Source: an uncultured Candidatus Saccharimonadales bacterium
GTDB lineage: Bacteria; Patescibacteriota; Saccharimonadia; UBA4664
Assembly (NCBI GenBank): GCA_964505035.1
Contig: CAZDGK010000001.1
Location: 12,270-76,269, forward strand
DNA length: 64,000 nucleotides
Direction: 5' to 3'
The number at the start of each line of letters is the position of its first letter. Position 1 is the first letter of the stretch. Position numbers and translations under genes: made by a program. Of this stretch, positions 4,651-59,149 are shown one piece after another. Below the pieces are notes generated by a model that saw only the letters and a list, made by a program, of their open reading frames with translations, searched no databases and was not told the origin of the DNA.

Positions 4651-4751
4651 ACGACCCTCCAGTGAATTTGTAAAATACACCCTAGTAATTTCATTATAAC
4701 GCTTATGTCTAGTCCGGTCGGTCAAGGGATTACTTCTGGTATACTCTGCTT

Positions 4752-5939: not shown

Positions 5940-6010
5940 TCGATTATTTACAAAGCCAGTAAAAAAGTTTAATATAGGCAAGTCCAGTCCCAACTCCATA
6001 GGAGTGGCCC

Positions 6011-6367
6011 ATGAATCTACACATGTTCAACACCGAGGACGGCTACGCGCTCTGGGGCGCGTTCCTGACCGGCACTCACAACGACGGCGATGGCGGCATT
6101 CACATCTACGAGTGGTGGTTCACCATCGCCCGCACCGAGGAAGAGGCCCGTAAGACCCTGGAGGGTCCGGCAGAGGCGCGCAAGGCGCGATTCAGCTGGC
6201 ACGCGCACGATCCCGGCACCATCGAGTACCGGACCATCGGCCCGTCAGAGCTGGTCGTCTGCTGGCGTCTCCCCGTCGGCGACCACTACCTCAAGCCGGT
6301 GAAGCTGACGCATCCCAGCGCCAGCGGTCTCAACGTGACGGCCGCGCTGATCGACATGCGCAGCTAG
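6011..6367 (+). CDS. Hypothetical cytoplasmic protein.
   Basis: GGAG sits 7 nt before the ATG. Strong GC3 codon bias. No recognisable motif. Confidence 0.5.
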   Translation: MNLHMFNTEDGYALWGAFLTGTHNDGDGGIHIYEWWFTIARTEEEARKTLEGPAEARKARFSWHAHDPGTIEYRTIGPSELVVCWRLPVGDHYLKPVKLTHPSASGLNVTAALIDMRS

Positions 6368-6434
6368 TCACCACAGTGGCGGTAGCTGAACATCTCAGCT
6401 GCCGCTATTTATTTTAGGTTTTAGTCAAACAAGG

Positions 6435-27173: not shown

Positions 27174-28837
27174 TCCGATGGACGGTTGTTGACGATCAGG
27201 CGCGACCGCACCCGACCGACCCGCGGCATCACTGGCGGCGCAAATCCGCGCCGGGTGAACCGCTGGCAATTACCGTACACGAATGTCGAGCTAAATACCG
27301 CACCGATGAACGGATACAAGACCCCTTCAACGTGCTGAGCCGACAAAACGTTGGTCAAAATGAGCGACAGCGTCGCCGCCGCCATCAAGTCCAACGCCAC
27401 TACGGGTTGATACATCACACCAAGCACAGCCGCCGCGACACCAATCGGTATCGCTATCAGCTGCGCCAGCCGGAAGACCGAGAACGGGGAATAGGGGTAG
27501 GCCACAATGAAGTCGCCGCACCCTCGCCCCGATCGCATGTACTCCCGGAGAAGCGCCCTAAACCCCTCCCGGTGCGATCGGCGAGCCGACAGCAGGGGAG
27601 TGGTGTAGATGGTGAATCCCGCCCGCAGAGCCCGCCACGCATACTCGTAGTCTTCGTACGAGTTCGTGAAATCGGGCCTGGGCTCGTGAATGGCATTCCA
27701 AACTTCGCGCCGTACTGCCAGATTGGCCGTCACCGGTGGTTTGAATTCACCGATGTTGTCCGCCGTGAGGCGGAACGGCCTAACTACACGAGGGGTCTTC
27801 GACCCACTGGTGGTCCGGTCAATAAACCGGCCCCAGAAGCTGTGCGCCACACCCGTCACCGGGCCGGCCACAAACTTCTCGCCGCCGGTCGTCAGCAGGT
27901 CCACAATATTGGCGAGCCAATATTTGCCTGGCATCAGATCGGCATCCGCATAGACAATGATCTCGCTGTCTTGGGAGACATAGAGCATGCCTTGCTGCCG
28001 CTTGGCGTTCGCATCCCGCCCTGGCGAAACGACCTTGACTTCGACGTTGTTGATCGCGGCGCCGGCCATAAATTGACCGATGCCGCTCCACGTCTGGTCG
28101 TAGGGGTCGCCTACCAGGACGAGCTGAACGTTGCGCGGATAGCTGCGAACGTAGGTCTGGCGGTTGAGAGCTCCCAGCAAGCGGCCAATTGAATCGCCGT
28201 TGTTCTTGCAGGGAACCACAATGCTTACCTTGGGATATCGGGTCACGATAGTGCCGTGGTCCGCTGGGTCCGGCTGTTCGCCTGGCGCGAACGTGTACGT
28301 GTCGTTGGCCGTGTAGTTAAACGCAGCTCCGACAATCGCACCCGCCACGTAGGCGAGCCAGGCCGGTAGTCCCAGCCCCGGGATTCCATACCCCGACACC
28401 CACAGACCATTTGTCTGCAGGTTGTACAGGATTTGGTTGAGCCCAAAGGTAAACAAACGGGCGTAGTGGAAGTACAGCCACGAGCGCCGGAACCCAACGG
28501 CCCGGCGGTCGCTCCACGTGATGTACCGGCTGCCGAGGAAGTTTAGTTCCACGGATACCGCACCTTCCAGAAGATAGCTCCAGAAGTTCGGCCAGCCCAG
28601 GACATTGCGCAGGAAGTACAGCAACCCGGCTCCGATTATGAAGACCGAGATGCCGACACCTGCGAACTTAACGACCCGTAGTGCGTAGCGCACGAGATAC
28701 ACGATCTCGCGCCACCGGAATACGTACAGAGTTCGCCTTAGCAGGTAGAAATAACCTACCAGCAGGGTCCACACCACCGAGAACGGTGGCGGAACCCGGG
28801 TGAACCTGTCTGGTACCCCCGCCCGATGAGTTCTCAA
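27152..28837 (-). CDS. GtrA-like membrane domain fused to a GT2 glycosyltransferase, a polyprenyl-phosphate sugar synthase type.
   Basis: GtrA motif 'VKFAGVGISVFIIGAGLLYFL...NFLGSRYITW'. GT2 'VSIVVPCKNNGDSIG' and a DxD-like 'YADAD'. Probable TTG start at 28837 after GAGAGGAG; the ORF runs to 28939. Confidence 0.7.
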   Translation of the reverse strand: MRTHRAGVPDRFTRVPPPFSVVWTLLVGYFYLLRRTLYVFRWREIVYLVRYALRVVKFAGVGISVFIIGAGLLYFLRNVLGWPNFWSYLLEGAVSVELNFLGSRYITWSDRRAVGFRRSWLYFHYARLFTFGLNQILYNLQTNGLWVSGYGIPGLGLPAWLAYVAGAIVGAAFNYTANDTYTFAPGEQPDPADHGTIVTRYPKVSIVVPCKNNGDSIGRLLGALNRQTYVRSYPRNVQLVLVGDPYDQTWSGIGQFMAGAAINNVEVKVVSPGRDANAKRQQGMLYVSQDSEIIVYADADLMPGKYWLANIVDLLTTGGEKFVAGPVTGVAHSFWGRFIDRTTSGSKTPRVVRPFRLTADNIGEFKPPVTANLAVRREVWNAIHEPRPDFTNSYEDYEYAWRALRAGFTIYTTPLLSARRSHREGFRALLREYMRSGRGCGDFIVAYPYSPFSVFRLAQLIAIPIGVAAAVLGVMYQPVVALDLMAAATLSLILTNVLSAQHVEGVLYPFIGAVFSSTFVYGNCQRFTRRGFAPPVMPRVGRVRSRLIVNNRPSEWREDAR

Positions 28838-28985
28838 CCCATCTCCTCTCTCTAGGCTTGTGAAAGGGCATGCCGGCCACGCGGTCGACACTGGCGGATA
28901 CAGCAGCAATCTGCCACAGTATGCAGACCACTTTAACACAAAATGGTCAATATGTGAAGCAGATTAGCTTGGCCAAGCGCCTAGC

Positions 28986-30635
28986 TTACGGCACCAGTTC
29001 GATCCATACTGTATTGCCAGTCGCGCTGCTGCCCAGGCCAGGCAAACTGCCGCCCGCGTAGGCCGTCGTTTTGGCCAGTACCGGTGAGAGCCCGGCTACG
29101 CCGCCAGCCAATGTAGCACCCTTCACCGACAACGTCGTGCCCGTCCAAGCAATCGCCAGATATAGCTGCTGACTGACTGAGGTGTTTATAGTGCTGTCGA
29201 GCGCCAGGTTGTCGTAGAGCGTGGAGGCCGTCGTCACCGTGGTATGAATATCCGCCGTCGATGCGAGCAGCACGTTACTCGAGTTATAGACACCCAACCG
29301 CACCTCGGTCAGTCCGGCCGGCGTCGTCGTCCCCGTGGCAAAGCGGATCTTCGTAAAGCTCGAGGCCACCTTGGCGTAGGCCAGGATGCCATACACCGTG
29401 CCGGTAGTCAGGTTGAGATTGCCCGAGGCGATCAGCCGGCTCATCGTCGACACATTGCTACTACGCCGCAGCTCAAACTCATCAAAGAAGTTATTGGCCG
29501 ATACCGATCCTGTCACATTCAGGTTGCCAGTCACGGTCACGTCACCAGTCCCGGCATTGACCACGAAACTGTCGGTATTAGTGCCGTCGCCCTTCAGGAT
29601 GCGGAATGTGCGCGTTTGGGTAGTGTTGGTGTTGCGAAAAATCCGGTAAGTCGCATTGTGGGCGTTGTCTTGCGTCAGCACATCATTGTCGATAATCGTG
29701 TGGCCATTCACATCCAGAGTCGGCGTTTGATTGCCCAACACGGTGCCCGCCGCCGTCTTAAACTGCAGCCGCCCTGCCATCGTGATGTTGCCAGTCTTGG
29801 CGTCCATAAATATCACCTGCGTGGCGGTGCCGTCGGCCGCATACAGTGCCCAGGTAGCCGTGCTCGTATTGGTGTCGCGGAATACCCGCACCGCCGCCCC
29901 CGTAGTATTGTCCAGACCCACCCCAATATCGAGCGTCGCCACACCGCCGGCGTCCACGTTGTAGGTCAGCTTGCCCACGGTGTAGTTAGTGCCGCTCGAT
30001 GTCCCAGCCGCCACCGAGCCACTGGTTGGGGTATTAAAGGTGATGCCAAACTGCGTGTTCGGACTATTGATGCCATTCTCGATATAGAGCATCGAGCACG
30101 AATAAAACGCCGCCTGCGTCTGATCAGCGTCACTCTTGAGCCTAAACCGGGTCACCAATACCGACGAGTTGGGCCCGGTAGGGTCGGCCGCCGTCTTGAC
30201 CTCCAAGCCGTGGTGACTCGAACCGCTCGGGATCAGGTCGTGCCAGCCCAGCCAGGCCTGTACCCGCCCGTTCACATCAATCCACACCGGACCGCCCCGG
30301 CTTAGCGTACCCTCGTCCTGGAACACGATGTTCTTCTGCACGAACCCACCCGGATCATTGACCGAGTTCATCACAATCTGCCCGGTCCGGGCCGCTTGTT
30401 CCGGAAATGCCAGATTACCACTAAACGTCTTCGTACCCGACGCCGTCTCGTTGCCCGACAGGTGCATCACAGTGCTATCGGTCGCCTTGGCCGCCAGGTC
30501 GCTCACAAGATTGGTGATTTGGGCTTGAGAAAGGCTTTTAATGGTGCCGTCCGCATTGTGCGTCACCATTAGGAAATCATTCAGAATATCGCCCCAGACG
30601 CCGTCATCGCCTCCGGGCTGTGGCAGCCGCGACAC
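28986..30635 (-). CDS. Large Thr/Asn-rich surface protein, a paralogue of 7904..9958. It has a conserved 'LPQPGGDDGVWGDILNDFL' N-terminus and tail-fibre-like repeats.
   Basis: Repeats 'VRVFRDTNTSTATWALYAADGTATQVIF' and 'YRIFRNTNTTQTRTFRILKGDGT'. C-terminal 'LYLAIAWTGTT' domain is shared with the 7904 protein. Confidence 0.6.
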   Translation of the reverse strand: MSRLPQPGGDDGVWGDILNDFLMVTHNADGTIKSLSQAQITNLVSDLAAKATDSTVMHLSGNETASGTKTFSGNLAFPEQAARTGQIVMNSVNDPGGFVQKNIVFQDEGTLSRGGPVWIDVNGRVQAWLGWHDLIPSGSSHHGLEVKTAADPTGPNSSVLVTRFRLKSDADQTQAAFYSCSMLYIENGINSPNTQFGITFNTPTSGSVAAGTSSGTNYTVGKLTYNVDAGGVATLDIGVGLDNTTGAAVRVFRDTNTSTATWALYAADGTATQVIFMDAKTGNITMAGRLQFKTAAGTVLGNQTPTLDVNGHTIIDNDVLTQDNAHNATYRIFRNTNTTQTRTFRILKGDGTNTDSFVVNAGTGDVTVTGNLNVTGSVSANNFFDEFELRRSSNVSTMSRLIASGNLNLTTGTVYGILAYAKVASSFTKIRFATGTTTPAGLTEVRLGVYNSSNVLLASTADIHTTVTTASTLYDNLALDSTINTSVSQQLYLAIAWTGTTLSVKGATLAGGVAGLSPVLAKTTAYAGGSLPGLGSSATGNTVWIELVP

Positions 30636-42472: not shown

Positions 42473-43681
42473 TCATATGCTAACCCGCAGCCTGACAGGA
42501 GCATTTACCACTTCCGCGTATAGTTCCGTCATAGCTTCTGCCGTGTGGTTCCAGCCGTAGCGGGCATGCACCCGCCGCGCCGCCGCCTTGCCGTACTTGC
42601 GACGCAGCGCCGCATCACCAAGCAGCTCGCTGATAGCGCTAGTCAGCCCAGCGCGATCGCCCGGCATAACCTGCCGGCCGGTACTGCCATCTACCACACT
42701 GTCAATCAGACCTCCCACAGCATAGGTTACCACCGGCACACCACAGGCCATCGCCTCTAGCGGCGTCAAGCCAAACGGTTCATACCAGGGTGTGCACGTC
42801 ACGAGGTCGGCCGAGCGGTACCAGCTCGCCATCTCCGATGCCGGAACCGCACCCACCAACTGCACCTGATCGGTCACACCGAGCGCGTCAGCCAGCTGGT
42901 ACAGTCGCCTAAACTCCGGGTCACGATCAGCCCCATGTTCGGGCCCGCCCACCACCACCAGCTCGACGCCGGGCAGGTTAGGCAGGATCCGAATCACCTC
43001 CTCGAACCCCTTGCGCGGAACGGGTCGGCCAACTGCCAGTAGCCGGGGCCCGGTCTTATTGACCGTCGGCCCGCGCGGCTGAAACTGGTTCAGATCAATG
43101 CCGGAAGGAATGAGCCGGATTTGGGTAGCGGGGACGCCAAGAGCCATTAGTTCGGCCACCTCATCGCTACATTGAGCCACGACTCGCTGCACCACCAGGG
43201 CCAGCTGCCGTTCAATCGACATCCGCCCCGCCGGACTAGTATCGTCCTGGCGCTGGAAACGTCGCTTGACGTTGCCGTGAGCATGATAGGTCAGCACAAC
43301 CGGAATCTGCCGCGGCATCGCCCCCCGCAACGCCGCGATTCCGCTCATCCAGAAGTGGGCATGAACCACATCCGGCCGCCTCTTCGACTCCGCAAACCGA
43401 CTGCTCAGCCAGCTGCCAAATGGCACCATATAGGGCATGAGCTCGTCCTTGGGCACGCCTTCGGGAGGACCCACGGGCACATGCACCACCTCATACCCCC
43501 CTGGAGCGCTGATGCGCCCGGCCCTGACCATGCTGTCGCGCCGGGTGTAGACCGTCACTTCGTGACCCACCGCCACCAGCGCCGCAGCCAGACCGGCCAC
43601 GTGTCGATTTTGCCCACCGGCGTCAATTCCGCTAATCGTTGCCAGCGGGCTGGCATGCTCTGACACAAGTGCAATCCTCAT
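42473..43681 (-). CDS. GT4 glycosyltransferase (MshA/BshA-like retaining family).
   Basis: 'MRIALVSEHASPLA...GGQNRHV' N-terminus and a C-terminal EX7E-type region. ATG at 43679-43681. Confidence 0.8.
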   Translation of the reverse strand: MRIALVSEHASPLATISGIDAGGQNRHVAGLAAALVAVGHEVTVYTRRDSMVRAGRISAPGGYEVVHVPVGPPEGVPKDELMPYMVPFGSWLSSRFAESKRRPDVVHAHFWMSGIAALRGAMPRQIPVVLTYHAHGNVKRRFQRQDDTSPAGRMSIERQLALVVQRVVAQCSDEVAELMALGVPATQIRLIPSGIDLNQFQPRGPTVNKTGPRLLAVGRPVPRKGFEEVIRILPNLPGVELVVVGGPEHGADRDPEFRRLYQLADALGVTDQVQLVGAVPASEMASWYRSADLVTCTPWYEPFGLTPLEAMACGVPVVTYAVGGLIDSVVDGSTGRQVMPGDRAGLTSAISELLGDAALRRKYGKAAARRVHARYGWNHTAEAMTELYAEVVNAPVRLRVSI

Positions 43682-43819
43682 GCCGCACCCCCCGTTGGGT
43701 TGCAACATCGGGGATCAAGGTACTTCACCGGACACTCCCTTCTATTTGTGAGAATTAGCGCCAGCCGGGGCACTCTACCACAACCTTTGCCAACACGCAC
43801 CGTTAGTACTTACAAAAGC

Positions 43820-47796: not shown

Positions 47797-49299
47797 GTGG
47801 AAGGGGTGGCTGATCTGGCACTGTACCGGAAGTACCGGAGTGCGCACTTTGACGACGTCATTGGACAAGACCACGTCGTTAAAACCATCACAACTGCCAT
47901 CAAAAATGGCCGGTTGTCTCATGCGTACCTGTTTACCGGCCCAAGAGGGGTGGGGAAGACGAGTGTCGCTAGGCTATTAGCCCGCGCTCTCAACTGCACG
48001 GATCAGCAGTCTAGACCATGCAATGAGTGTGCCAATTGCAAGGCCAGCCTAAACGCCTCTCTCGACATCATTGAAATCGACGCCGCCAGCAACCGGTCGA
48101 TTGACTCAGTGCGAGAGCTTCGCGACAAGATCAATCTGGCGCCGGCCATCGGCAGCTACAAAGTCTACATCATCGACGAGGTCCATATGCTAACCAGTGA
48201 GGCTTTTAATGCGCTGCTGAAAACGCTTGAGGAGCCACCCGCCCATGCTGTATTCATCCTGGCGACTACCGAAGCCCACAAGGTGCCCGAAACGATCATC
48301 TCCAGAACCCAGAGATTCAACTTTAAGCCCATCACCCCGGCCGACATCATCAAACACCTAGAAATGATCGCCAAGAGCGAAAAAATCGCCATCGAGCCCG
48401 CCGGCCTCGAAGTCATCGCTGGCGTAGCGCGCGGCAGCTTCCGTGATGCCATCAGCATTCTCGACCAAATGAGCTCCAGTGGCGAGCAGCCCATTACCGC
48501 CAGCGGCGTGCGGCTGCTCCTAGGACTTAGCGATAGCGAAGCCGTCGCCACCGTCAGCCGCGCCATGGCAGCCGGCGACGCCAAGGCCGCTGTCGAAGCG
48601 CTCACCACCGTGCTAGCAGGCGGCGCGCAGCCCGGCCAGATCGCCGCTCAGCTGGCCAGCCAATGGCGCGAAGCGCTGCTGGTCACCGTCGGCGCCGCCA
48701 CGGCCACCGACGACACGACCCGCGACCTTGCCGCCCAGCTCTCACCCTCAGCCATCGGCACCATCATCGAGGAATTGCTGGCTGTCACTCGGTCACACTG
48801 GCCACGCGAGAGCCTTGAAGTAGCCGTGATTCGCCTGGCCGCGCCAGCCGCCGAGCCACCGCGCCCGGCCGCCCCGGCGCGCGCTCAGGCCACCACCGCC
48901 GCGGGCGCCACCACTGCTCCTGCAGCCACCGCGCCCACTCCAGCCGCTCCGACTAGTGAGCCGTCAGCCGACGTCGAGCTCTGGCCCAAGGTCCTCGTCA
49001 TGCTCAAGACCAAGAATAACTCGCTCTGCGCTCTGCTCCAGATGTACCCTGTCGAGTTCAAAGACGGCAAAATCGTCATCAAGTCCCGCTTCAATTTCCA
49101 CCGGGACCTGTTCCTGAAGGTCCAAAACCGCTCCGTCATTGAGGATGCCGTCCAGAAGGTCTACGGCCGCCCCATCCCAGTCACCGCCATCACCGACGAG
49201 GCCGCCGCTGGCCGCCCCGCCAAAAAACTCGCCGACCCCAGTGCCGAGCTCATTTCCTCGGCCCTGGAGATCCTGGGTGGGGAAGTAGTGGAGGAATAG
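47797..49299 (+). CDS. dnaX: DNA polymerase III gamma/tau subunit.
   Basis: 'LYRKYRSAHFDDVIGQDHV...LFTGPRGVGKTS' Walker A. 'IDEVHML'. Ala/Pro-rich linker. Confidence 0.9.
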   Translation: MEGVADLALYRKYRSAHFDDVIGQDHVVKTITTAIKNGRLSHAYLFTGPRGVGKTSVARLLARALNCTDQQSRPCNECANCKASLNASLDIIEIDAASNRSIDSVRELRDKINLAPAIGSYKVYIIDEVHMLTSEAFNALLKTLEEPPAHAVFILATTEAHKVPETIISRTQRFNFKPITPADIIKHLEMIAKSEKIAIEPAGLEVIAGVARGSFRDAISILDQMSSSGEQPITASGVRLLLGLSDSEAVATVSRAMAAGDAKAAVEALTTVLAGGAQPGQIAAQLASQWREALLVTVGAATATDDTTRDLAAQLSPSAIGTIIEELLAVTRSHWPRESLEVAVIRLAAPAAEPPRPAAPARAQATTAAGATTAPAATAPTPAAPTSEPSADVELWPKVLVMLKTKNNSLCALLQMYPVEFKDGKIVIKSRFNFHRDLFLKVQNRSVIEDAVQKVYGRPIPVTAITDEAAAGRPAKKLADPSAELISSALEILGGEVVEE

Positions 49300-49300
49300 T

Positions 49301-50710
49301 ATGGCAGACCGTCGCGACCAGAGCCGCCAAAGTCAGTTTGAACGCCTCGGCCAAGGCCTCGAGGTGGAGCTGGCGGCCGGCGTGGCCGGCAAGGTCCCGC
49401 CCCAAAACACCGAGGCCGAGACAAGCCTGCTCGGCAGCCTGCTTATCGACAAGGACGCCATCATCAAGATTGCCGACATTGTCACCCCAGAGGACTTCTA
49501 CGACAACCGCCACGCCATCATCTTCAGCGCGATGCTCGACCTCTACGAAAAGCGCCAACCCATCGACCTACTCACCCTCGCCAACAAGCTCCGCGAAGCC
49601 GGTGAGCTCGACCGCGTCGGCGGCTCCGCCCAGCTAGCCGAGCTCACGTCCATGGTGCCCACTGCCGCTCACGTCGCCGAGTACGCCAGCATCGTGGCCC
49701 ACAAGGCCACCCTCCGCCGCCTCATCTCGGCCGCCGGTCATATCACCAATCTGGGCTACGACGAAAACACCGCCCTCGACCAGCTCCTCGACAAGGCCGA
49801 GCAAACCATCTTCGAAGTCAGTCAGAAAAACCTCAAACAAAACTTCATCCCCGTCCGCACCGTCCTCGACGAGTCGTTTGAGCGCCTCAACGAGCTCCAC
49901 TCCAACGCCGGCAAGCTCCGGGGTATCCCCACCGGTTTCCGCGACCTCGATTCCACTCTAGCTGGCCTCCAGAACTCCGATCTGCTCATCCTGGCCGCGC
50001 GTCCGTCCATGGGCAAGACCACCTTCGTCATGAACCTGGCCCATCACGTGGCCGCCAAAGAAGGCATCCCCGTCGGCTTCTTCAGCCTGGAGGTGTCCAA
50101 GGAGCAACTCATCGACCAGCTGCTAGCCATCGAGTCCGGCGTCGACTCCTGGAAGCTGCGCACCGGCGCCCTCGACGACGACGATTTCCCGCGCATCGCC
50201 GACGCCATGGCCCAGCTCTCGGAAGCCCCGCTCTACATCGACGACTCCGCCACCACCAACGTCATGGAAATGCGCACCAAAGCCCGCCGTCTGCAAGCCG
50301 AGCACGGGCTGGGCCTAGTTATCGTCGACTATCTGCAGCTTATCTCCGGCGGCGCTCGCAGCCAGGAAGGCCGCACCCAGGAAGTGAGCGAAATCTCCCG
50401 CCAGCTCAAGGGTCTAGCTCGTGAGCTCGGAGTGCCAGTGGTTGCCCTGTCGCAGCTGTCCCGCGCGGTCGAGTCGCGCAACCCACCCATTCCACAGCTG
50501 TCCGACCTGCGCGACTCCGGCTCCATCGAGCAAGATGCCGACGTCGTGATGTTCCTCTACCGTCCGTGGTACTACGACAAGGAGGCCGACGAAAACCTCA
50601 CCGAAGTCCTTGTCCGCAAGCACCGCAACGGCCCCATTCGCGACATCGAGCTGGAGTTCCACCCCGAGCAGCGCAGCTTCCTCGACCGCGCCGAGCGCTT
50701 CCACGGCTAG
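49301..50710 (+). CDS. dnaB: Replicative DNA helicase DnaB.
   Basis: 'ARPSMGKTTF' Walker A. 'IVDYLQLI'. Confidence 0.95.
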   Translation: MADRRDQSRQSQFERLGQGLEVELAAGVAGKVPPQNTEAETSLLGSLLIDKDAIIKIADIVTPEDFYDNRHAIIFSAMLDLYEKRQPIDLLTLANKLREAGELDRVGGSAQLAELTSMVPTAAHVAEYASIVAHKATLRRLISAAGHITNLGYDENTALDQLLDKAEQTIFEVSQKNLKQNFIPVRTVLDESFERLNELHSNAGKLRGIPTGFRDLDSTLAGLQNSDLLILAARPSMGKTTFVMNLAHHVAAKEGIPVGFFSLEVSKEQLIDQLLAIESGVDSWKLRTGALDDDDFPRIADAMAQLSEAPLYIDDSATTNVMEMRTKARRLQAEHGLGLVIVDYLQLISGGARSQEGRTQEVSEISRQLKGLARELGVPVVALSQLSRAVESRNPPIPQLSDLRDSGSIEQDADVVMFLYRPWYYDKEADENLTEVLVRKHRNGPIRDIELEFHPEQRSFLDRAERFHG

Positions 50711-50754
50711 CGGCATTGCCCCCGTCCGAGCTATCACCTATACTCAAGACAGTT

Positions 50755-51255
50755 ATGCTTACTCAAGACATCGAGGCGGTTATACCCCGGCACCGGCGCC
50801 TGACCAAAGCCAACTTTAAACAGGCCGGTAAGTTTGGGTTGGTCGGCATCATCAATACCGCCGTTGATTTCCTCATCTACAACCTGCTCCATTTCGGCGC
50901 CGGGCTGGCCCTCGTACCGGCCAACGTCGTCTCCACGACCATCGCCATGACCTTTAGCTTTATCGCCAATAAGCGTCTGGTCTTCCGCCACGAATCGGCC
51001 ACCCAGGCTCGCCACATCGCGCTGTTCCTGCTGGTCACGGCGTTCGGACTCTATGTCCTTCAAAATGGTGCTATCGTATTGCTGACCGAAATCTGGACGC
51101 AGCCCCTGCACCTCCTCATCCAGGCCTGTCATACCGCCGGCCTCAACCGCTTCATGACTGATACCTTTATCTTTAATAACGGCGCCAAGGCCGCCGCTAC
51201 CGCTGTCAGCTTGACATGGAACTATATTCTTTATAGAAAGGTAGTATTTAGGTAA
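50755..51255 (+). CDS. GtrA-family membrane protein of a polysaccharide-glycosylation system.
   Basis: 'GKFGLVGIINTAVDFLIYNLL' and 'FIANKRLVFR'. TATACT lies 10 nt upstream of the ATG. The ORF track's upstream extension overlaps dnaB and was rejected. Confidence 0.75.
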   Translation: MLTQDIEAVIPRHRRLTKANFKQAGKFGLVGIINTAVDFLIYNLLHFGAGLALVPANVVSTTIAMTFSFIANKRLVFRHESATQARHIALFLLVTAFGLYVLQNGAIVLLTEIWTQPLHLLIQACHTAGLNRFMTDTFIFNNGAKAAATAVSLTWNYILYRKVVFR

Positions 51256-52787
51256 TGAAGCAATCAACCCCACCTTTTGCCTGGCTCGGCCGCTACTTTG
51301 AATGGGTAGTGCTGGCGGGTTTGCTCGGCCTGGCCGCCTTCTTCCGCTTCATCGACCTAACCAGCCTGCCACCCGGCCTCTACACTGGTGAGGCCCGCAT
51401 CGGCCTCCAGGCCCTCGATCTGCTACACCACGGCACACTTCCCGGACTCGATTCCTACAATCAATACGCCCCCCTCTGGGTCTGGTTGCAGGCGCTGGCC
51501 GTGGCCGTGTTTGGGCACAATGACTGGAGCCTCCGCGTCTGGCCGGCCGTCCTCGGCGTGCTAGCCACTGGCGCCACCTGGCTCTGGGCCAAGCAGTGGT
51601 TTACCGGCCGCATCGCCTGGATAGCCGCGCTCCTCGTAGCTGTCACACCGTGGTCGGTCACGCTCAGCCGCAGCGCCATGCCCACCGAGCTCATCATCCT
51701 GCTCGTGCCGCTAACGCTCTGGACGGTCACCGAAATCTACCGCCGCGGCACGCTCGGCCTCTGGCTAGCCGGCGCCGGCCTCCTCACTCTCAGCCTGCTC
51801 TCTGGGCCGCTCGGTTGGCTGCTGGTCGCCAGCGTCACCGTCCTGGGCGTCTTCCAACTAGTCCGCCGCCACGAGCTGCTACGGGGAGGCAAAGCCCGCT
51901 GGGCCGGCCTGGTGGCCGCTGCCCTAGGTTTCGGACTGTTTGGCTACTTGGCGGGCACCTCGGCCGCCAGCCTGTCCGCGCTACCAGTCGCCCTGGGCCT
52001 GACCGCTCCGCCGGCCATCATTCTCGAAAATATCGCCCGCACCCTGTTGATGTTTAACCTCCGCGGCGACGAAAACTTCCGCCACAACTTCGCCGCCGAA
52101 CCCATGCTCAATGCGTTCGTCGGGCTGATGTTCATCTTTGGCATCCTGGTCTCGATCTCCCGCCTGCACCTACGCCGCTACCGCATCCTGCTCCTGCTGT
52201 TCGTCATCCTGCTCGCCCCAGCTGCTCTCAGCAATACCGGCGTGCCCAATGCCGCTCACGCCGCTGCCGCCCTGCCCATTGTCGCCGTCTTGGCCGCCGT
52301 TGGTATCAGCTATATGCTCGAGCTCTGGTACTCCACCTTCCCAATCAATTCGGCCGCCCGTAGCGTCGGCCAGTCCGTCATTGTCCTGCTTCTGGCCCTC
52401 ACCATCTTCCAGGGCTACACCCAATACTTCCGCGCCTGGGCTGCGTCCGGCGAAACCTACAGCACCGCCAATGAAGCCGCCACCAACGCCGCCCGGTTCC
52501 TCAAGACCACCAGTTTCAGCGGCACGCGGCTAGTTGTTGCCACACCCGACGAGCTCGCCACCGTCCACTTCCTGGCCTACAACCAGCCAGCTCACCAAGA
52601 GCTCGACCCAGCCGGTCTGGTGGGTCTGCCCGTCACCCCCGGCGCCCGGCAGTTCATCATCACCGCCGCCGCCCGCGATGCCGCCGCCAAGAACCTGGCT
52701 CTCAAGTTCCCCGGCAGCAAACTACGTGCTCATCTGTCACCCTTTAGCTACAATGAGATCTATTACGTCTATGAGGTAACCCAATGA
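51255..52787 (+). CDS. GT39 / ArnT-PMT-family (GT-C) membrane glycosyltransferase.
   Basis: About 12 TM helices. 'YTGEARIGLQALDLLHHG' in periplasmic loop 1. Lies between GtrA and the GT2. Confidence 0.8.
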   Translation: MKQSTPPFAWLGRYFEWVVLAGLLGLAAFFRFIDLTSLPPGLYTGEARIGLQALDLLHHGTLPGLDSYNQYAPLWVWLQALAVAVFGHNDWSLRVWPAVLGVLATGATWLWAKQWFTGRIAWIAALLVAVTPWSVTLSRSAMPTELIILLVPLTLWTVTEIYRRGTLGLWLAGAGLLTLSLLSGPLGWLLVASVTVLGVFQLVRRHELLRGGKARWAGLVAAALGFGLFGYLAGTSAASLSALPVALGLTAPPAIILENIARTLLMFNLRGDENFRHNFAAEPMLNAFVGLMFIFGILVSISRLHLRRYRILLLLFVILLAPAALSNTGVPNAAHAAAALPIVAVLAAVGISYMLELWYSTFPINSAARSVGQSVIVLLLALTIFQGYTQYFRAWAASGETYSTANEAATNAARFLKTTSFSGTRLVVATPDELATVHFLAYNQPAHQELDPAGLVGLPVTPGARQFIITAAARDAAAKNLALKFPGSKLRAHLSPFSYNEIYYVYEVTQ

Positions 52788-53557
52788 ACCAAATCGACCT
52801 CAGCATCATCCTGCCCTCATACATGGAAGCCAAGAATATTGGCTCGTCCCTGGACCAGCTCTCAGAGTGGCTAAGGACTCATGACTACGGCCATGTTGAA
52901 GTAATTGTGGTAGTCGCCGACAGCCCAGACGGCACAGCGGCCATCGCCGAGAGCAAGGCCGGACAGTTTGACAGCCTCATCGTCACCCATGCCGGCCCCC
53001 GGGCAGGGAAGGGCCGCGACGTCCGGCTGGGTATGTTCGAGGCCACCGGCCGCTACCGTATGTTCATGGACGCCGACCTAGCCACACCGCTCTCGCACCT
53101 CGACGACGTGAAAGCCCTGATGGACCACGGCGGCAAAGTCGGCATCGCCGTGCGTGACCTCGTCAAAATCCACAAAGGCCTCATCCGCAAAACCATCACC
53201 GGCTTCGGCAACTTACTGGCCCAGATTATCCTGCTACCCGGGCTCAAGGACACTCAGTGTGGCTTCAAAGTCTTCGAGGCTGAAGCCGCCGAAGCCGTCT
53301 TCAGCCGCCTGACCATCCTGGGCTGGGGCTTCGACCTCGAGATCCTGGCCGTCGCCCGCAAGCTCGGCTACCACATCGAGACCTTCGAGGCTCCCGACTG
53401 GAAAGACCCCAAGGCCGAGGGCGCCGGACTAGTAGGGGATTCGCCGCTCAAAGCCTCCATCCAGGTTTTCCGCGACCTGCTAACCGTCCGCTGGAACCTC
53501 ATCCGCGGCCTCTACCGCCAGCCCAGCTACCACCACACTCCCGGCGCCATCGACTAG
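52784..53557 (+). CDS. GT2 polyprenyl-phosphate glycosyltransferase (DPM1 / ArnC / GtrB-like).
   Basis: 'LSIILPSYMEAKNI' and 'MFMDADL' DxD motif. Confidence 0.85.
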   Translation: MNQIDLSIILPSYMEAKNIGSSLDQLSEWLRTHDYGHVEVIVVVADSPDGTAAIAESKAGQFDSLIVTHAGPRAGKGRDVRLGMFEATGRYRMFMDADLATPLSHLDDVKALMDHGGKVGIAVRDLVKIHKGLIRKTITGFGNLLAQIILLPGLKDTQCGFKVFEAEAAEAVFSRLTILGWGFDLEILAVARKLGYHIETFEAPDWKDPKAEGAGLVGDSPLKASIQVFRDLLTVRWNLIRGLYRQPSYHHTPGAID

Positions 53558-53566
53558 CATCGCAGC

Positions 53567-53971
53567 ATGAATAGGCTCCTCATCATCGTTGGCAGTCAGT
53601 CCGACATCCCACTGCTCAAAGACCTCGAGCAGCAGCTGACCAAGGCCAAGATCACCTACGATATCGAAATTGCCTCCTGTCACCGCGACCTCGACACGCT
53701 CTACCAACTGCTCACCACCATCAAGGACGGCCGCTACCGGGCCGTAGTTGCGGTAGCCAATGCCGTCTCCAACATGCCGGCCATCGTGGCCAGCTATCTC
53801 AAAGATACCGCCACAGTGGTAGTCGGCGTCGGCCTCAGCGACAAGGGCATGAATGGCATCGACTCGCTTCTAGCCATCAATACCATCCCCAAGGGCGTGC
53901 CCCTTGTCACCACCGGGCTCGGCGCCACCGGCCTGCACAACGCCGGCCTGTTCGTCGCTAAGCTGTTCTAG
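53567..53971 (+). CDS. PurE-like (AIR carboxylase / N5-CAIR mutase fold) protein with substituted active-site loops.
   Basis: 'LIIVGSQSD', 'IASCHRD' (compare SAHRTP) and 'GIDSLLAINTIPKGVPLVT'. The 70s loop 'AGGAAHLPG' is replaced by 'ANAVSNMPA'. Confidence 0.65.
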   Translation: MNRLLIIVGSQSDIPLLKDLEQQLTKAKITYDIEIASCHRDLDTLYQLLTTIKDGRYRAVVAVANAVSNMPAIVASYLKDTATVVVGVGLSDKGMNGIDSLLAINTIPKGVPLVTTGLGATGLHNAGLFVAKLF

Positions 53972-55830
53972 TACAGCTTGTACAGGTAGATAGAGTAGCC
54001 AATCTTAGCCACCGGCTGCATTGCCCGCAGGTAGCGGTAGCCCGGCAAGCCGTCGCGGTTGGAATAGTAGCGGTCATTCTCCAGGAATGTCTCCGACACC
54101 GCTATATACTGACCCGTGTACGGCCCATACTCACTATGCCAATCCTCATAGACCGCCGCACTGCAGTCATATCCCCCAGCCGTCGCCACTAGCCGGCCCT
54201 GCTTGTCGTATTGGCGCTTGCAGAAGTAATATTTGGGATCACCGCCGCCAAAGTAGTCTAGTGCCAAATGATCAATCTCCGGGTGCTCCGCCAGATAGGT
54301 CTTTAGCCGCTTCAGGTCCTGTCCCCAGTCCACGCTCGAGTCGCTAAAGTACTCGCCAGAATACGCCGCCCCGCCAATCAGTTCATTAAAGTACGCCGTA
54401 AACGCCGGGTACACCAGCACCGTGCTTGCTGTGTACCAGCCAAGCAGCAATGTCAGCAGCACAGCCGAGTGCGTCTGCCAGGGCGTCTTGGCCATCCGCC
54501 GGGCAATTTGCACCACTCCAATCGCCACCAGCACAAAGATCGGCACATAGATCGGCAAAATGTGCCGGATACCGAGATTGAGATTACCGGCCACCGAAAT
54601 ACCAAAGTAAAACACCGCGAACCCACCAAGCACCCACTCAGTAGTATGCTTGCGCGTCGACTCAAGCACCGGCTTCAGTAGCCGGAATGGCCGGCGACTC
54701 AGATACACCGCCAAGCCCGCACCCACCACCAATATCAGCAAAATCAGCAGCGCCACTTGCGTCTTCACCAGGAATAATTCCGGGAAATAGCCATGGAAGC
54801 TTTGATTGGTGACTTGGCCATTAAAGTACGTCGTGTTGCCGCCGCTCACCCGGCCAAACACCATCGTCAGACCCAGCAGATATTGCGCCAGCGACTTCAT
54901 CAGCGGCAGGCCGTTAATCGCGGTCAGGATATGCGCCATAGTCTGGCCCACCGAGCTGCCCATGAGCGAAGTGTTGATGAGCTTGTCCTGCACGCTTTCT
55001 GGCATATTCCAGGTGTGCGGGATGTAAAACAACCAAATCCAACCCAGACTAGCAACACTGGCCGCAATAAAGCCACCCACCCAATGCTTAAGCCTCGTCA
55101 CCCAGCTAGCTGGATCGCGCCACAGCACCACCATGCCAATCGTTAGCACACCTAGGAACGGGTAGAGCAGGAAGCCGCTAAACTTAGCCAGGTTGGCTCC
55201 GGCTAGCGCCAGCGATAGCCACAACACATTGCGGCCCGTCGGGCGCTTCACAAACTTCGCAAACGTCACGAGCGCCACAAAGGCGAATACACTCTCACCC
55301 AGGTCGGTCGTCACATAATGCGCGTGGGCAATGATATTGGGGCTCATCGTGTAAAACAGCAGCGTCAGCAGCGCCACTCCCAGGCCCCACTCCTTGCGCA
55401 CATACCAGAACAACCACGCACCAAACCCGATCGCCAGCAGCAGGATCGGCAGTCTGGCCCAGAACAAGATGGCGTCAGCGTTGTTGCCGATGTGATAAAT
55501 AAAGTTCCACCCCGACTCCCATTGGCCATTGGCATCTGTCGTCCAGGCCGGCTCATAGTCAGGGAACCTCAGGTGCATAAACTGCAATGGTAGCCCGGCC
55601 AGATCCTTGATCAGCGGCGGGTGCTCAGGGTTGAGCCGGTAGTCGCCGTAGTGCAGATACGAATAGCCAGCCGGAATATGGGCAATCTCATCCACGATCG
55701 CCGAATCACCCATCATCGCGCCCAGACCCAGGCCAAACATCGCGGCTAGCATCGCCGCCGCTAGCCACCACGCCCACCGGCGGCTCCACTCAGAAACGGG
55801 CGTTATGATACGATGGTACAAAGACTTCAC
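53968..55830 (-). CDS. GT39 / PMT-family (GT-C) membrane glycosyltransferase with a C-terminal extracytoplasmic domain.
   Basis: 'DEIAHIPAGYSYL' DE motif. Many TM helices. 620 aa. Confidence 0.75.
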   Translation of the reverse strand: MKSLYHRIITPVSEWSRRWAWWLAAAMLAAMFGLGLGAMMGDSAIVDEIAHIPAGYSYLHYGDYRLNPEHPPLIKDLAGLPLQFMHLRFPDYEPAWTTDANGQWESGWNFIYHIGNNADAILFWARLPILLLAIGFGAWLFWYVRKEWGLGVALLTLLFYTMSPNIIAHAHYVTTDLGESVFAFVALVTFAKFVKRPTGRNVLWLSLALAGANLAKFSGFLLYPFLGVLTIGMVVLWRDPASWVTRLKHWVGGFIAASVASLGWIWLFYIPHTWNMPESVQDKLINTSLMGSSVGQTMAHILTAINGLPLMKSLAQYLLGLTMVFGRVSGGNTTYFNGQVTNQSFHGYFPELFLVKTQVALLILLILVVGAGLAVYLSRRPFRLLKPVLESTRKHTTEWVLGGFAVFYFGISVAGNLNLGIRHILPIYVPIFVLVAIGVVQIARRMAKTPWQTHSAVLLTLLLGWYTASTVLVYPAFTAYFNELIGGAAYSGEYFSDSSVDWGQDLKRLKTYLAEHPEIDHLALDYFGGGDPKYYFCKRQYDKQGRLVATAGGYDCSAAVYEDWHSEYGPYTGQYIAVSETFLENDRYYSNRDGLPGYRYLRAMQPVAKIGYSIYLYKLY

Positions 55831-55881: not shown

Positions 55882-56169
55882 ATGTTTGAGAAAGCCAAAA
55901 TGATGATGGAACTCAAGAAGATCCAGAGCGCTCTGGCCAAGGAGATTGTCGAGACCGAAGCCGGCAACGGCGCCGTCAAGGTGCGGATCAATGGCGAGCA
56001 AAAGATTCAGAAAATCACCCTCGATCCCGATCTCGTCGCCGACGCCGACCTGCCCAAGCTCGAGAAGTGGATCGAGTCGGCTGTAACCCAGGCCATCACC
56101 CGCAGCCAGCAAGCCGCCGCCGAGAAGATGAAGAGTGTTGCTGGCGGACTGGGTTTGCCCGGGCTGTAA
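55882..56169 (+). CDS. ybaB: Nucleoid-associated protein YbaB/EbfC.
   Basis: AAGGAGA RBS. 'MMMELKKIQSAL...AGNGAVKV'. Confidence 0.85.
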   Translation: MFEKAKMMMELKKIQSALAKEIVETEAGNGAVKVRINGEQKIQKITLDPDLVADADLPKLEKWIESAVTQAITRSQQAAAEKMKSVAGGLGLPGL

Positions 56170-56181
56170 CTCACAACCCCT

Positions 56182-56781
56182 ATGCGCATCGTCCCCACGG
56201 CCGTCGAACGGCTCATCGAAGAATTGGGCAAGCTGCCCGGTGTCGGCCCTCGCACCGCCGAACGCCTAGCCTTTCATTTGCTCAAAGCCGACGCCCACAA
56301 GGCCCAGAGTCTCGGCCTGGCGCTCGATAGCCTGCATGCTGCCGTCCGCTCCTGCCGCGTCTGCCACAACTTCGCTGAGGCCGATATCTGCGCCGTCTGC
56401 GACGACAGCGGCCGCGACCGCCGCACCATCGCGGTCGTGGAGGAGCCCTTCGACGTGGTCGCGATCGAGAAAACCGGCCTCTACCAAGGCCTCTACCACG
56501 TGCTCGGCGGCGTCATCTCACCCATGGACGGCGTCAGCCCAGCCGCCCTCGAGATTGCCAGCCTTATCCACCGGATCGAAAACGGCGAGATCGACGAAGT
56601 CATCCTGGCCACCAATCCATCCCTCGAGGGCGAGTCCACCGCCATGTACATCCGGGCCCAGCTCGAGCCACACGGCACCAAGCTCACCCGGCTGGCCCGC
56701 GGCCTACCGGTCGGTGGCGACCTCGAATACGCCGACCAAGTCACGCTTGGCCGCGCCCTCCAAGGTAGACAAGCCTTCTAA
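56182..56781 (+). CDS. recR: Recombination protein RecR.
   Basis: 'LPGVGPRTAERLAF' helix-hairpin-helix, 'CRVCHNF...CAVC' zinc finger and a Toprim domain. Confidence 0.95.
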   Translation: MRIVPTAVERLIEELGKLPGVGPRTAERLAFHLLKADAHKAQSLGLALDSLHAAVRSCRVCHNFAEADICAVCDDSGRDRRTIAVVEEPFDVVAIEKTGLYQGLYHVLGGVISPMDGVSPAALEIASLIHRIENGEIDEVILATNPSLEGESTAMYIRAQLEPHGTKLTRLARGLPVGGDLEYADQVTLGRALQGRQAF

Positions 56782-56836: not shown

Positions 56837-57331
56837 ATGTCAGACACCACCCGCACTGTTGTCCGCCAGAGTCAGGGCACAGTGTATCAGGAGATCCAAG
56901 ACGCCCTGGACGCCGTCTATCAAATGCGCACCCGGATTGACCTGCAAGGTCTCCACAGCACACTTGAGCAAACCGGCCGCCCCATCGAACAACTACTCGG
57001 TACCCATCCCTACAACATCGGTTCCGAGTACCGCCGGCGGCGCAACCGGCTGGCGAACTTGCTAGCCCAGCGCATGGCCCAGGGCTACATCGGCATCGCC
57101 AGCGAAGCCAACGGCGGCGCCTACAGCTACTTCAACCGCGGCCCCGCCCAAGAGCCCCGGCACCTCCTGGTGTACTTCAATCCCATCAGCGACGTCGCCT
57201 TCTGGCACCTGGGCGGACTCCTGCCCCAGCGGCCCCGGCTCAGCCCCGGCAATATCGGCCGCTTCGCCGAGGAACGGGATTGGGAGCGGTTGTTTCGGCA
57301 GCTGCCCAACATCCGCTTCCTGCCTCACTAG
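56837..57331 (+). CDS. Hypothetical protein.
   Basis: 164-aa ORF followed by a strong terminator. Confidence 0.5.
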   Translation: MSDTTRTVVRQSQGTVYQEIQDALDAVYQMRTRIDLQGLHSTLEQTGRPIEQLLGTHPYNIGSEYRRRRNRLANLLAQRMAQGYIGIASEANGGAYSYFNRGPAQEPRHLLVYFNPISDVAFWHLGGLLPQRPRLSPGNIGRFAEERDWERLFRQLPNIRFLPH

Positions 57332-58415: not shown

Positions 58416-58488
58416 ACTCGTAGCCATGACCACTCGCACTCCCCACACCCTCTGCTGCCGCACCTGTACCTAGGTGAGGCTGGTTTTT

Positions 58489-58511
58489 GCATTCCAAATC
58501 TGGCCTCACCG
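58489..58511 (+). terminator. Rho-independent terminator, part of an overlapping two-hairpin arrangement.
   Basis: CTGGCC-tcac-CGGCCAG followed by TTTTTTG. An alternative upstream hairpin, GGTGAGGC...GCCTCACC, overlaps its 5' arm. Confidence 0.5.
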
Positions 58512-58555
58512 GCCAGTTTTTTGTTTGCACCAACCAACCCACAAGGACCCTCACC

Positions 58556-59149
58556 ATGAACATCGCTTTCTTCACCGCCCATCCCGACGACCACGAGATG
58601 ATGCTGGCCTACCAAACCCTGGAGCTCCAGTCCCGGCCCGACACCACCCTCTACGCCTACATCGCGACCAATGGCGAAGCCAGCACCCTAGGCCACCCCG
58701 CCTTCGTGCGTTCCGGCCAGCGCCGCCACGAATCAGCCGCCGGCCTAGCTGCCCTTGGCATTAGATCAGGCCACATCCACCACGCCGGCCTGCCAGACGG
58801 TCGTTTGACCGACGAAGCCACCTTTACCCAGCTCGGCGGCAGCATCAGGCATTTCATCGAACACCACCAAATCACTCAGGCCGTCACACTCGGAGCCAAT
58901 GGGGGAGATTACCACCCAGACCATATCGCGGTCCACCAAGCCGTCGCCGGCCAAAAGCTCCCCATTCTGGCCCTCAACGCCGCTCATACTGGCCAGCTTG
59001 CGATTACCCCGACTATCAGCCAGCGCCTAGCCAAGCTCACCGCCCTGTCGCATCACCGCAGCCAATTCCCCGAGCCGTCTCGCATTGGCCCGCCGTGGGA
59101 ACGCTTTTTAGCTGCCGAAACCTACGACCATATTCTAAATGCGCTATAG
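58556..59149 (+). CDS. LmbE / PIG-L family N-acetylglucosaminyl deacetylase.
   Basis: 'IAFFTAHPDDHEMM' is an AHPDDE-type zinc-binding motif. Confidence 0.8.
   Translation: MNIAFFTAHPDDHEMMLAYQTLELQSRPDTTLYAYIATNGEASTLGHPAFVRSGQRRHESAAGLAALGIRSGHIHHAGLPDGRLTDEATFTQLGGSIRHFIEHHQITQAVTLGANGGDYHPDHIAVHQAVAGQKLPILALNAAHTGQLAITPTISQRLAKLTALSHHRSQFPEPSRIGPPWERFLAAETYDHILNAL

Follow-up and report, generated by a model that had tools for sequence, protein, structure and literature searches.

A putative three-component glycosylation cluster with a variable second GT-C gene lies between dnaX-dnaB and ybaB-recR throughout Saccharimonadia

We analyzed a gene cluster within a 64,000-nucleotide stretch of DNA (hereafter the window) from an uncultured Candidatus Saccharimonadales bacterium (assembly GCA_964505035.1, contig CAZDGK010000001.1, positions 12,270 to 76,269 of the forward strand). 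Between the replication genes dnaX-dnaB and the recombination genes ybaB-recR, the window encodes a GtrA-family membrane protein, a 510 aa GT-C-fold protein, a soluble family 2 glycosyltransferase (GT2), a PurE-fold protein, and, on the opposite strand, a 620 aa GT-C-fold glycosyltransferase. Apart from the PurE-like gene, the cluster is a core, vertically inherited feature of this position throughout Saccharimonadia, and we consider it likely, with a probability of roughly 75%, to be that class’s version of the three-component (Gtr-type, multi-component) transmembrane glycosylation systems. Systems of this type are well known, and the genes are already generically annotated in public records. 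The glycosylation machinery of Saccharibacteria has been called unexplored (bioRxiv 10.1101/2024.11.25.624915), and we found no description of this cluster in the literature on glycosylation in Saccharibacteria and Patescibacteria. The window has a GC content of about 60%, and its closest relatives by RecR retrieval are metagenome-assembled genomes (MAGs) of Candidatus Saccharimonadia (TM7). All of the open reading frames (ORFs) described here by a sequence-only reading of the window were present where it had placed them, and their identities hold at the level of fold and family (Pfam, NCBIfam). The cluster and its flanks are as follows.

47797-49299, plus strand: dnaX (DNA polymerase III gamma/tau; NCBIfam NF004046, 445 bits), upstream flank, syntenic in all Saccharimonadia loci
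49301-50710, plus strand: dnaB replicative helicase (TIGR00665, 554 bits), directly after dnaX in all Saccharimonadia loci
50716-50744, plus strand: promoter-like match TTGCCC-17-TATACT (9/12 consensus), ending 10 nt before the GtrA ATG; unproven
50755-51255, plus strand: GtrA-family small membrane protein, 166 aa (PF04138)
51255-52787, plus strand: GT-C(A)-fold PMT_2-family protein, 510 aa (Pfam PMT_2, AlphaFold2 model, Foldseek)
52784-53557, plus strand: soluble GT2 (GT-A fold), 257 aa (PF00535)
53567-53971, plus strand: divergent PurE-fold protein, 134 aa (AIRC)
53968-55830, minus strand: GT-C(A)-fold glycosyltransferase, 620 aa (AlphaFold2 model, Foldseek), convergent with the PurE-like gene
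55882-56169, plus strand: ybaB/ebfC (PF02575, E 8e-20), conserved downstream flank
56182-56781, plus strand: recR (TIGR00615, 246 bits), conserved downstream flank

The window’s proteins were compared by tblastn to 80 recR-centred loci (retrieved loci are given L-numbers). In every Saccharimonadia locus with sufficient flank the order was hyp187-dnaX-dnaB-GtrA-GT-C-GT2, then a slot of variable content, then ybaB-recR-(DHH)-cysS. This order was found in L001-L004, L006-L009, L011-L013, L015-L017, and L022, with RecR identities from 79% down to 54%. An identical order, together with the window’s upstream thyA-glyA-rplJ-rplL context, was found in L084 and L085, two contigs reached via distant homologs of the 510 aa protein, for a total of about 17 Saccharimonadia loci. 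The cultured oral species Southlakia epibionticum has a reduced form of the cluster, in which dnaX (SEML1_0402), dnaB (0401), a 486 aa “glycosyltransferase family 39” protein (0400), ybaB (0399), and recR (0398) follow one another (PMC10633639 Table S1, Wang et al. 2023). In the recR-centred loci of Chloroflexota and other outgroup phyla, dnaX lies about 1 kb upstream of ybaB-recR by tblastn, which bears out, for loci outside the Patescibacteria, the expectation that the two normally adjoin. The sequence-only reading took the intervening genes for an inserted module and would have expected their order to differ among relatives; instead, the order is the same across the class, and thus the interruption of dnaX-ybaB-recR is ancient in the class and not a recent insertion.

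We accordingly regard it as highly improbable that the cluster is a recent, horizontally acquired island interrupting dnaX-ybaB-recR with the PurE-like gene as a functional member. Such an island would fit the adjacency of dnaX and ybaB-recR in the outgroup phyla, and the GT2/GT-C junction does gather lineage-specific genes, but the order is kept over the Saccharimonadia loci and S. epibionticum, and homologs of the PurE-like gene sit in unrelated contexts. GC content at third codon positions (GC3) is also uniform over the region (0.70-0.84) and thus gives no compositional sign of recent acquisition, and an RNA-gene search of the window returned no tRNA or other RNA match; no integrase or repeat was noticed. 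A recent insertion of the core module is ruled out by synteny and composition together.

By tblastn against the relatives’ loci, the only lineage-specific genes at the window locus are the PurE-like gene, a gene for a 164 aa hypothetical protein, and a PIG-L gene. The latter two break the otherwise conserved recR-DHH-cysS run: 56837-57331 (plus strand) encodes the 164 aa protein, for which no family match was found, and 58487-59149 (plus strand) encodes a 220 aa PIG-L/LmbE-type de-N-acetylase (PF02585, E 7.5e-15), and neither had a tblastn match in the relatives’ loci. We would also like to mention that L005, a contig with Saccharimonadia-like recR and cysS, is labelled “Candidatus Nanoarchaeia archaeon” and is probably a mis-binned epibiont contig.

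The genes are closely packed, with a 1-nt gap between dnaX and dnaB, a 1-nt overlap between the GtrA TAA stop and the ATG of the 510 aa gene (TAATG), and a 4-nt overlap between the 510 aa gene and GT2 (ATGA). The plus-strand genes had been described as overlapping by 1-4 nt throughout; this is accurate for the GtrA/510 aa and 510 aa/GT2 pairs, whose start/stop overlaps confirm tight coupling, and inaccurate for GT2 and the PurE-like gene, which are separated by a 9-nt gap. The convergent ends of the PurE-like and 620 aa genes share 4 nt. A leaderless promoter had also been proposed in front of GtrA, but the single 9/12 match there is within shuffle expectation (5 such matches in the region versus 2.7 +/- 1.6 in shuffles), and the promoter is unproven.

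GtrA matches PF04138 at 73.6 bits against a cut-off of 26.1 (E 1.9e-20, residues 26-165), and its annotated start is supported by alignments beginning at residue 1 in L001, L003, and L013. It lies one gene upstream of GT2 in all Saccharimonadia loci, with only the 510 aa GT-C between them. GT2 matches PF00535 (E 9e-18), and its best PDB match is the dolichol-phosphate-mannose (Dol-P-Man) synthase of Pyrococcus furiosus (5mlz, E 1.1e-7), in agreement, at the level of homology, with its earlier description as ArnC/DPM1-like. Its DAD motif is D96-A97-D98, the stretches FMDADLATP and DTQCGFK are the same in all 14 orthologs compared, and no hydrophobic or transmembrane segment was found in the protein. 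We therefore treat GT2 as a candidate polyprenyl-phosphate glycosyltransferase of the DPM1/Dol-P-Man synthase (DPMS)/GtrB type. All of its NCBIfam matches are far below cut-offs, a distance at which sugar specificity is unreadable. PF04138 is named “GtrA/DPMS transmembrane domain” by Pfam, and the GtrA/GT2 pair resembles a DPMS-type polyprenyl-phosphate sugar synthase split in two, in which GtrA would be the anchor and/or flippase. Since the GtrA sequence gave no meaningful match to any chain among PDB sequences, this likeness is drawn from the Pfam definition and from a GtrA-GT2 fusion encoded elsewhere in the window.

Sequence matches of the GT-C proteins to PDB entries are likewise weak or absent (for the 510 aa family profile, AglB at 3.6e-5 and ArnT at 1.1e-3; for the 620 aa sequence and profile, no match among PDB sequences), and so their classification comes from AlphaFold2 models and Foldseek. 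Both models match only GT-C(A) enzymes, namely protein O-mannosyltransferases (PMTs), ArnT, STT3/PglB/AglB, ALG9/12, and DPY19. The 620 aa model (predicted local distance difference test score, pLDDT, 88; predicted template modelling score, pTM, 0.90) retrieved C. thermophilum Pmt4 first (9i5k, 6.5e-7), followed by ArnT, Pmt1-Pmt2, STT3, DPY19, and ALG12, a ranking that places it about equally near PMT4 and ArnT. Its D47-E48 pair, invariant in 37 orthologs and followed by NPEHPPL, stands at the start of helix 46-61 directly after the first transmembrane helix (TM1), at the tip of the first juxtamembrane helix of the model. A conserved C-terminal extracytoplasmic domain of about 135 aa contains SDSSVDWGQDL, DYFGGG, and two invariant Cys. 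The protein scores only 20.7 bits against PMT_2, under the 26.1 cut-off that its orthologs pass, and has at least 1890 homologs, most of them close to 620 aa in length and named GT39 or ArnT-like in Saccharimonadia. Two orthologs at 59-61% identity (P0100 and P0102) are labelled “Pseudonocardiaceae bacterium” and are probably mis-binned epibiont contigs in host MAGs.

The 510 aa protein matches PMT_2 (PF13231) at 48 bits (E 2e-12), and its model (pLDDT 90) has ArnT as its best Foldseek match (5f15, E 1.5e-10), followed by STT3/AglB/PglB and ALG9/12, with the PMTs lower and PIGU also among the fold matches; by fold and profile it is nearer to ArnT and STT3/AglB than to PMT. The Asp-Glu dyad in loop 1 that typifies GT39 is present in the 620 aa protein, and the corresponding residues of the 510 aa protein are G45-E46. 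A Pfam scan found no match to PF02366, PMT_4TMC, or MIR in either protein, though a precomputed PF02366 match exists for some orthologs. The earlier label of GT39 for both proteins is thus too specific: “GT-C fold, PMT_2 family” is supported, and “GT39” is not established.

We infer every enzymatic step of the pathway, along with its lipid carrier, sugar, and acceptor, from homology and family knowledge. In the reading we favor, the soluble GT2 would load polyprenyl phosphate, on the cytoplasmic side of the membrane, with a hexose taken from a nucleotide sugar, the 4-TM GtrA would tether GT2 to the membrane and/or flip the polyprenyl-phosphate-sugar outward, and the GT-C enzymes would use the lipid-linked sugar on the outer face to modify envelope acceptors (proteins or wall/membrane glycopolymers). 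The 620 aa protein, with its canonical Asp-Glu, would be the clearest transferase, and the 510 aa protein, coupled between GtrA and GT2, may be a second, ArnT/STT3-like GT-C of uncertain catalytic status. At the homology level, the cluster has the protein components of a Gtr-type system: a GT2 with a DxD motif, a GtrA encoded with the GT2, and a GT-C fold with a conserved acidic motif in the first loop of the 620 aa protein; the 510 aa protein has the fold, but its acidic motif is not conserved. An envelope-glycosylation role, as first proposed from the sequence, is supported by this homology.

Systems of a GT-A enzyme, a GtrA, and a GT-C, including a variant in which a cytoplasmic GT-A works with a small membrane partner, have been described (PMC8035078). 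Similar to GtrA-GtrB-GtrC of Shigella/Salmonella phages and to CsbB-GtcA-YfhO and GtlA-GtcA-GtlB of Firmicutes (PMC8035078), the cluster encodes a GT-A-fold GT2, a GtrA, and a GT-C together, has an acidic motif in the first outer loop of a GT-C (here the 620 aa protein), and combines a conserved synthase/flippase pair with a variable GT-C, comparable to gtrAB with a type-specific gtr gene. Unlike those systems, the cluster is ordered GtrA-GT-C-GT2, its GT2 is soluble and lacks the C-terminal TM helices of GtrB/CsbB (in this it is like GacI, which depends on a separate partner in the membrane), and each locus has two GT-Cs, one of them with a degenerate dyad. It is also a core, chromosomal, class-wide cluster between replication and recombination genes, and is not phage-borne or strain-variable as a whole. 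The cluster is also comparable to the Dol-P-Man synthases (P. furiosus 5mlz, human DPM1/DPM3, mycobacterial Ppm1), of which 5mlz is the closest solved relative of the GT2 catalytic domain. The DPMS TM domain forms one Pfam family with GtrA (PF04138), so that GtrA and GT2 resemble a split DPMS, but the GT2 similarity reaches only E 1e-7 and GtrA has no PDB sequence match.

By both fold and profile, the 510 aa protein is matched best by ArnT (GT83) and STT3/AglB/PglB (GT66), which share its GT-C(A) architecture with a C-terminal soluble domain. Against this likeness, identity is about 13-14%, the equivalents of ArnT Asp55 and Lys85 are not conserved, and no WWD motif was noted in the 510 aa protein; Saccharibacteria are regarded as lacking lipid A, in which case the ArnT substrate is absent. 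The GT39 PMTs (fungal Pmt1/2/4, actinobacterial Pmt) resemble the 620 aa protein in that Pmt4 is its best fold match, its DE dyad is followed by HPPL, and its orthologs are annotated GT39. Unlike them, it has neither MIR nor PMT_4TMC, carries its own C-terminal domain of about 135 aa with two invariant Cys, and scores below threshold against PMT_2.

These matches bear on which acceptor the system modifies. Protein O-mannosylation of the actinobacterial Ppm1/Pmt (GT39) type, in which GT2 would make polyprenyl-phosphate-mannose and the GT-Cs would attach O-linked mannose to proteins that are secreted or on the surface (pilins or adhesins, for example), seems to us somewhat unlikely. It agrees with the Pmt4 and Pmt1-Pmt2 fold matches and the PMT-like dyad of the 620 aa protein, with a Dol-P-Man synthase as the best PDB match of GT2, with the naming of orthologs as GT39 by database annotators, with two GH130 beta-mannoside phosphorylases in the slot of one relative (L002), and with pilin O-glycosylation, which the literature predicts, but does not show, in TM7x. 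It fits poorly with the lack of PMT_4TMC and MIR in either GT-C and the confinement of PF02366 to some orthologs, with modest TM-scores to PMT (0.49/0.60) at 13-21% identity that are similar to those for ArnT and STT3, with the placement of the 510 aa protein nearer to ArnT/AglB, and with a GT2 too distant, its NCBIfam matches far below cut-offs, for its sugar specificity to be read. The Dol-P-Man synthase match and the GH130 genes are weak hints that the sugar may be mannose.

Decoration of wall or membrane glycopolymers (teichoic-acid-like polymers, lipoglycans, or secondary cell-wall polysaccharide), as by CsbB/GtcA/YfhO and GtlA/GtcA/GtlB in Firmicutes, is a tenable suggestion to which we give rather less than even odds; under it, surface chemistry would differ from strain to strain according to the alternative second GT-C carried. 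The swapping of the second GT-C among lineages recalls the pairing of gtrAB with a variable gtrC, the logic by which O-antigen serotype conversion works, and the fold matches to ArnT and STT3 suggest acceptors that are non-protein or mixed. The GT-A, GtrA, and GT-C architecture also matches the Firmicutes systems (PMC8035078). Opposed to this, no such polymer has been described in Saccharibacteria, the scanned window ORFs had no match to a teichoic-acid synthesis family, and the fold matches do not separate acceptor types.

The slot between GT2 and ybaB has three states. A 620 aa-type GT-C on the minus strand is found in the window, L001-L004, L012, L015, and L022; an alternative GT-C of 488-545 aa (most about 495) on the plus strand is found in L006-L009, L013, L016, L017, L084, and L085; and L011 has no second GT-C in the slot. 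The alternative GT-C of L006, the only one scanned against Pfam, matches PMT_2 (E 1e-18) and reads SSIWHDEG...DVHPPLYY. In a neighbor-joining tree of dnaX, dnaB, and recR, L015 and L022 (620 aa type) group with L016 and L017 (alternative) at 100% bootstrap, and L011 and L012 group with L008 (alternative) at 80%. Because these groupings mix slot states, the content of the slot has changed at least twice; the second GT-C is a swappable cassette. In L094 (3592-6744), a low-GC metagenome contig from more distant Patescibacteria, the order is dnaX-dnaB-GtrA, then a 620 aa-type GT-C on the plus strand (VDEIAH...NPEHPPL), then GT2. This arrangement ties the 620 aa type directly to the GtrA/GT2 pair and indicates that the module’s central GT-C is of a different subfamily in another lineage. 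L094 was the only informative result of a metagenome scan with the GT2 alignment, run to sample dyads against slot states, which otherwise retrieved mostly distant GT2s (32-40% identity) in other contexts. The junction also holds cargo: three additional ORFs are present in L001 (192, 315, and 139 aa, with a NUDIX domain in the one of 315 aa), and L002 has, at 2588-6421, two tandem GH130 (beta-1,4-mannooligosaccharide phosphorylase) genes of about 636 aa each between GT2 and the 620 aa-type GT-C, a weak hint that the module handles mannose.

The content of the slot runs parallel to a peculiarity of the 510 aa protein. In every GT-C(A) enzyme, according to a recent structural paper, the tip of juxtamembrane helix 1 bears an Asp that is required for catalysis (PMC12041299). 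We mapped the dyad in the 510 aa protein from family members carrying LPPGLHPDEA at the same alignment position, together with the ArnT profile alignment; an hhalign alignment of the 510 aa and 620 aa families (80% probability) was not used for this, as its N-terminal register is off by one motif (LPPGL on HPPL). The dyad position falls on G45-E46 within the family motif LPPGLxxDEA, which opens helix 44-59 directly after TM1, so that Gly45 stands where ArnT has its Asp. In the profile alignment, residues 71-75 (YAPLW) lie opposite the ArnT sequence from residue 89 on, near Lys85, and the Lys/Arg by which ArnT binds undecaprenyl phosphate is not conserved. Of 102 database homologs that contain the motif, 6 have DE at the canonical dyad, 26 have xE, 3 have xD, and the other 67 lack an acidic residue at both positions. 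Many of these 67 have DE shifted by two residues (DETS, DEAS), and in 20 homologs the 4-residue stretch is devoid of acidic residues. Other motifs are kept, with GDxNxxHN (271-278) present in 110 of 117 homologs and TFPINSAAR (361-369) present as FPINSAAR in 112 of 117. Judging from this conservation, selection clearly acts on the protein, though not on the canonical Asp.

Where the second GT-C is of the alternative type (8 loci), the 510 aa homolog always reads HPDEA. In the loci with a 620 aa-type enzyme, the dyad reads GE (window and L001), GD (L002), AS (L003), AE (L004), LE (L012), NE (L015), and DE (L022), so that the canonical Asp is replaced by G, A, L, or N in 7 of 8. One explanation, which we think unlikely, is that where a 620 aa enzyme is present the 510 aa GT-C is non-catalytic, serving as a lipid-sugar-binding scaffold or accessory of the GtrA/GT2 step or as a partner of the 620 aa protein. 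In its favor are the stated need for the Asp (PMC12041299), the retention or replacement of the Asp according to slot state, the lack of an acidic residue at both canonical positions in most homologs, and the near invariance of the other motifs. The PIGU fold match points the same way: PIGU, a subunit of the GPI (glycosylphosphatidylinositol) transamidase, is a non-catalytic GT-C-like protein. On the other side, Glu46 is kept in the window and most loci of the 620 aa state and could be the base, the shifted DE of many homologs or the invariant D272 might substitute, and strong conservation with translational coupling is what would be expected of an enzyme. The correlation between Asp loss and slot state, moreover, has been checked against phylogeny only by a rough neighbor-joining tree. 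We offer only as a conjecture, more probably wrong than right by some distance, the combined picture of a two-layer system with an invariant GtrA/GT-C/GT2 core and a swappable second GT-C, in which the 510 aa protein, alongside the 620 aa type, would have repeatedly lost its Asp and would now handle lipid-linked sugar as a partner that is non-catalytic or works by a novel mechanism; the glycosylation pathway concerned may be essential in Saccharibacteria.

A functional weight for the locus comes from S. epibionticum, where SEML1_0400 is a core family and its disruption gave, by transposon sequencing (Tn-seq), a growth defect and then essentiality at two later passages (GD/ES/ES; PMC10633639 Tables S1/S2), with insertions falling from 55 in the input DNA to 4, 1, and 1 (PMC10633639). 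All three genes of a GT2-GtrA-GT4 cluster elsewhere in that genome (SEML1_0898-0900) are GD/ES (PMC10633639).

Several points weigh against the assignment of the window’s cluster to the Gtr-type systems. Even in model systems, GtrA may act either as flippase or as anchor. A scan of the window ORFs found no nucleotide-sugar synthesis gene, and the 510 aa GT-C lacks the Asp held essential in all GT-C(A) enzymes, which makes its transferase role insecure. Polarity on ybaB could account for part of the essentiality of SEML1_0400, which is known by its annotation and could correspond to either GT-C type of the window.

The PurE-like gene had been counted as part of the module, but no counterpart was found by tblastn in any relative’s locus. 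The protein matches AIRC (E 7.7e-25), scores 80.7 against a cut-off of 149.6 for TIGR01162, and has a counterpart of 100% identity at NCBI, attributed to “Candidatus Saccharimonas sp.” It belongs to a small family of proteins of about 135 aa (20 matches), and its homologs (P0002-P0020; loci L081-L083 and L086, on Saccharibacteria-like contigs) occur in five unrelated contexts: bPH_2/PlsY, heliorhodopsin/SMC, TrkA/rpsI, an MFS/hydrolase group, and a sigma-factor gene. Similar to Class I PurE (N5-CAIR mutase), the 134 aa protein has the PurE fold, and both the GSxSD P-loop and the catalytic His-Arg in the 40s loop (SCHR; His39-Arg40) are retained in its family. Unlike Class I PurE, its 70s loop reads NAVSNMPA (NxVSNMP in the family) in place of GGAAHLPG, it stops near residue 133 in a PurE alignment of 160-170 aa and so lacks the C-terminal helix of about 30 residues, its purE score is below cut-off, and it has no pur neighbours, with a genomic location that varies between relatives. 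Genomic context rules it out as a module component, and it is, on comparison of the loci, best described as unrelated cargo that would have landed at the convergent GT2/GT-C junction in the window’s lineage. Saccharibacteria are regarded as lacking de novo purine synthesis. In L082 (1539-2715), a Saccharibacteria-like contig, a heliorhodopsin gene (PF18761) lies directly upstream of, and overlaps, the PurE-like homolog.

A second group of glycosylation genes is encoded elsewhere in the window.

27152-28939, minus strand: GtrA-GT2 fusion (PF04138 at residues 91-217; Glyco_tranf_2_3 and PF00535 at 236-527)
25578-27269, minus strand: third PMT_2 GT-C (PMT_2, E 3.2e-14), directly downstream of the GtrA-GT2 fusion; likely start M33, near 27173

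The fusion supports a partnership of GtrA with GT2. The window does hold three GT-C proteins, as had been reported, and the lack of pairwise BLASTP similarity among them indicates that they are not recent duplicates. Their density had been called unusual; with at least 4 GT-C-like proteins in the annotation table of the S. epibionticum genome (PMC10633639), several per genome look normal for the group. Directly upstream of the fusion is a 549 aa ORF (28986-30635, minus strand) whose match to BppL_N (phage baseplate N-terminal) is below cut-off at 23.8 bits, and which may encode a surface protein or adhesin associated with this other glycosylation module. A GT4-family glycosyltransferase (PF00534/PF13439) is encoded near thyA/glyA at 42473-43708 (minus strand) and adds to the window’s complement of glycosyltransferases. 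Finally, GC skew on the plus strand is negative nearly throughout the window (1-64000), with a cumulative value of -8.8 over 64 kb and a local minimum of -0.26, despite most genes, including dnaX, dnaB, and recR, being on that strand. This is the reverse of the usual leading-strand G excess and could reflect a codon or C-rich coding-strand bias.

What appeared to be an insertion is thus ordinary conserved synteny for Saccharimonadia. The repeated loss of a “universal” GT-C catalytic Asp provides a natural experiment on GT-C mechanism, and lineage-specific surface chemistry, and thus host range or phage/immune evasion, could stem from the swappable second GT-C. Saccharibacteria live as obligate epibionts, and host recognition takes place through their surface. 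With its class-wide distribution and a GT-C called essential at the same spot in S. epibionticum, the one species with Tn-seq data, the cluster is a concrete and testable candidate for the pathway that builds epibiont surface glycans.

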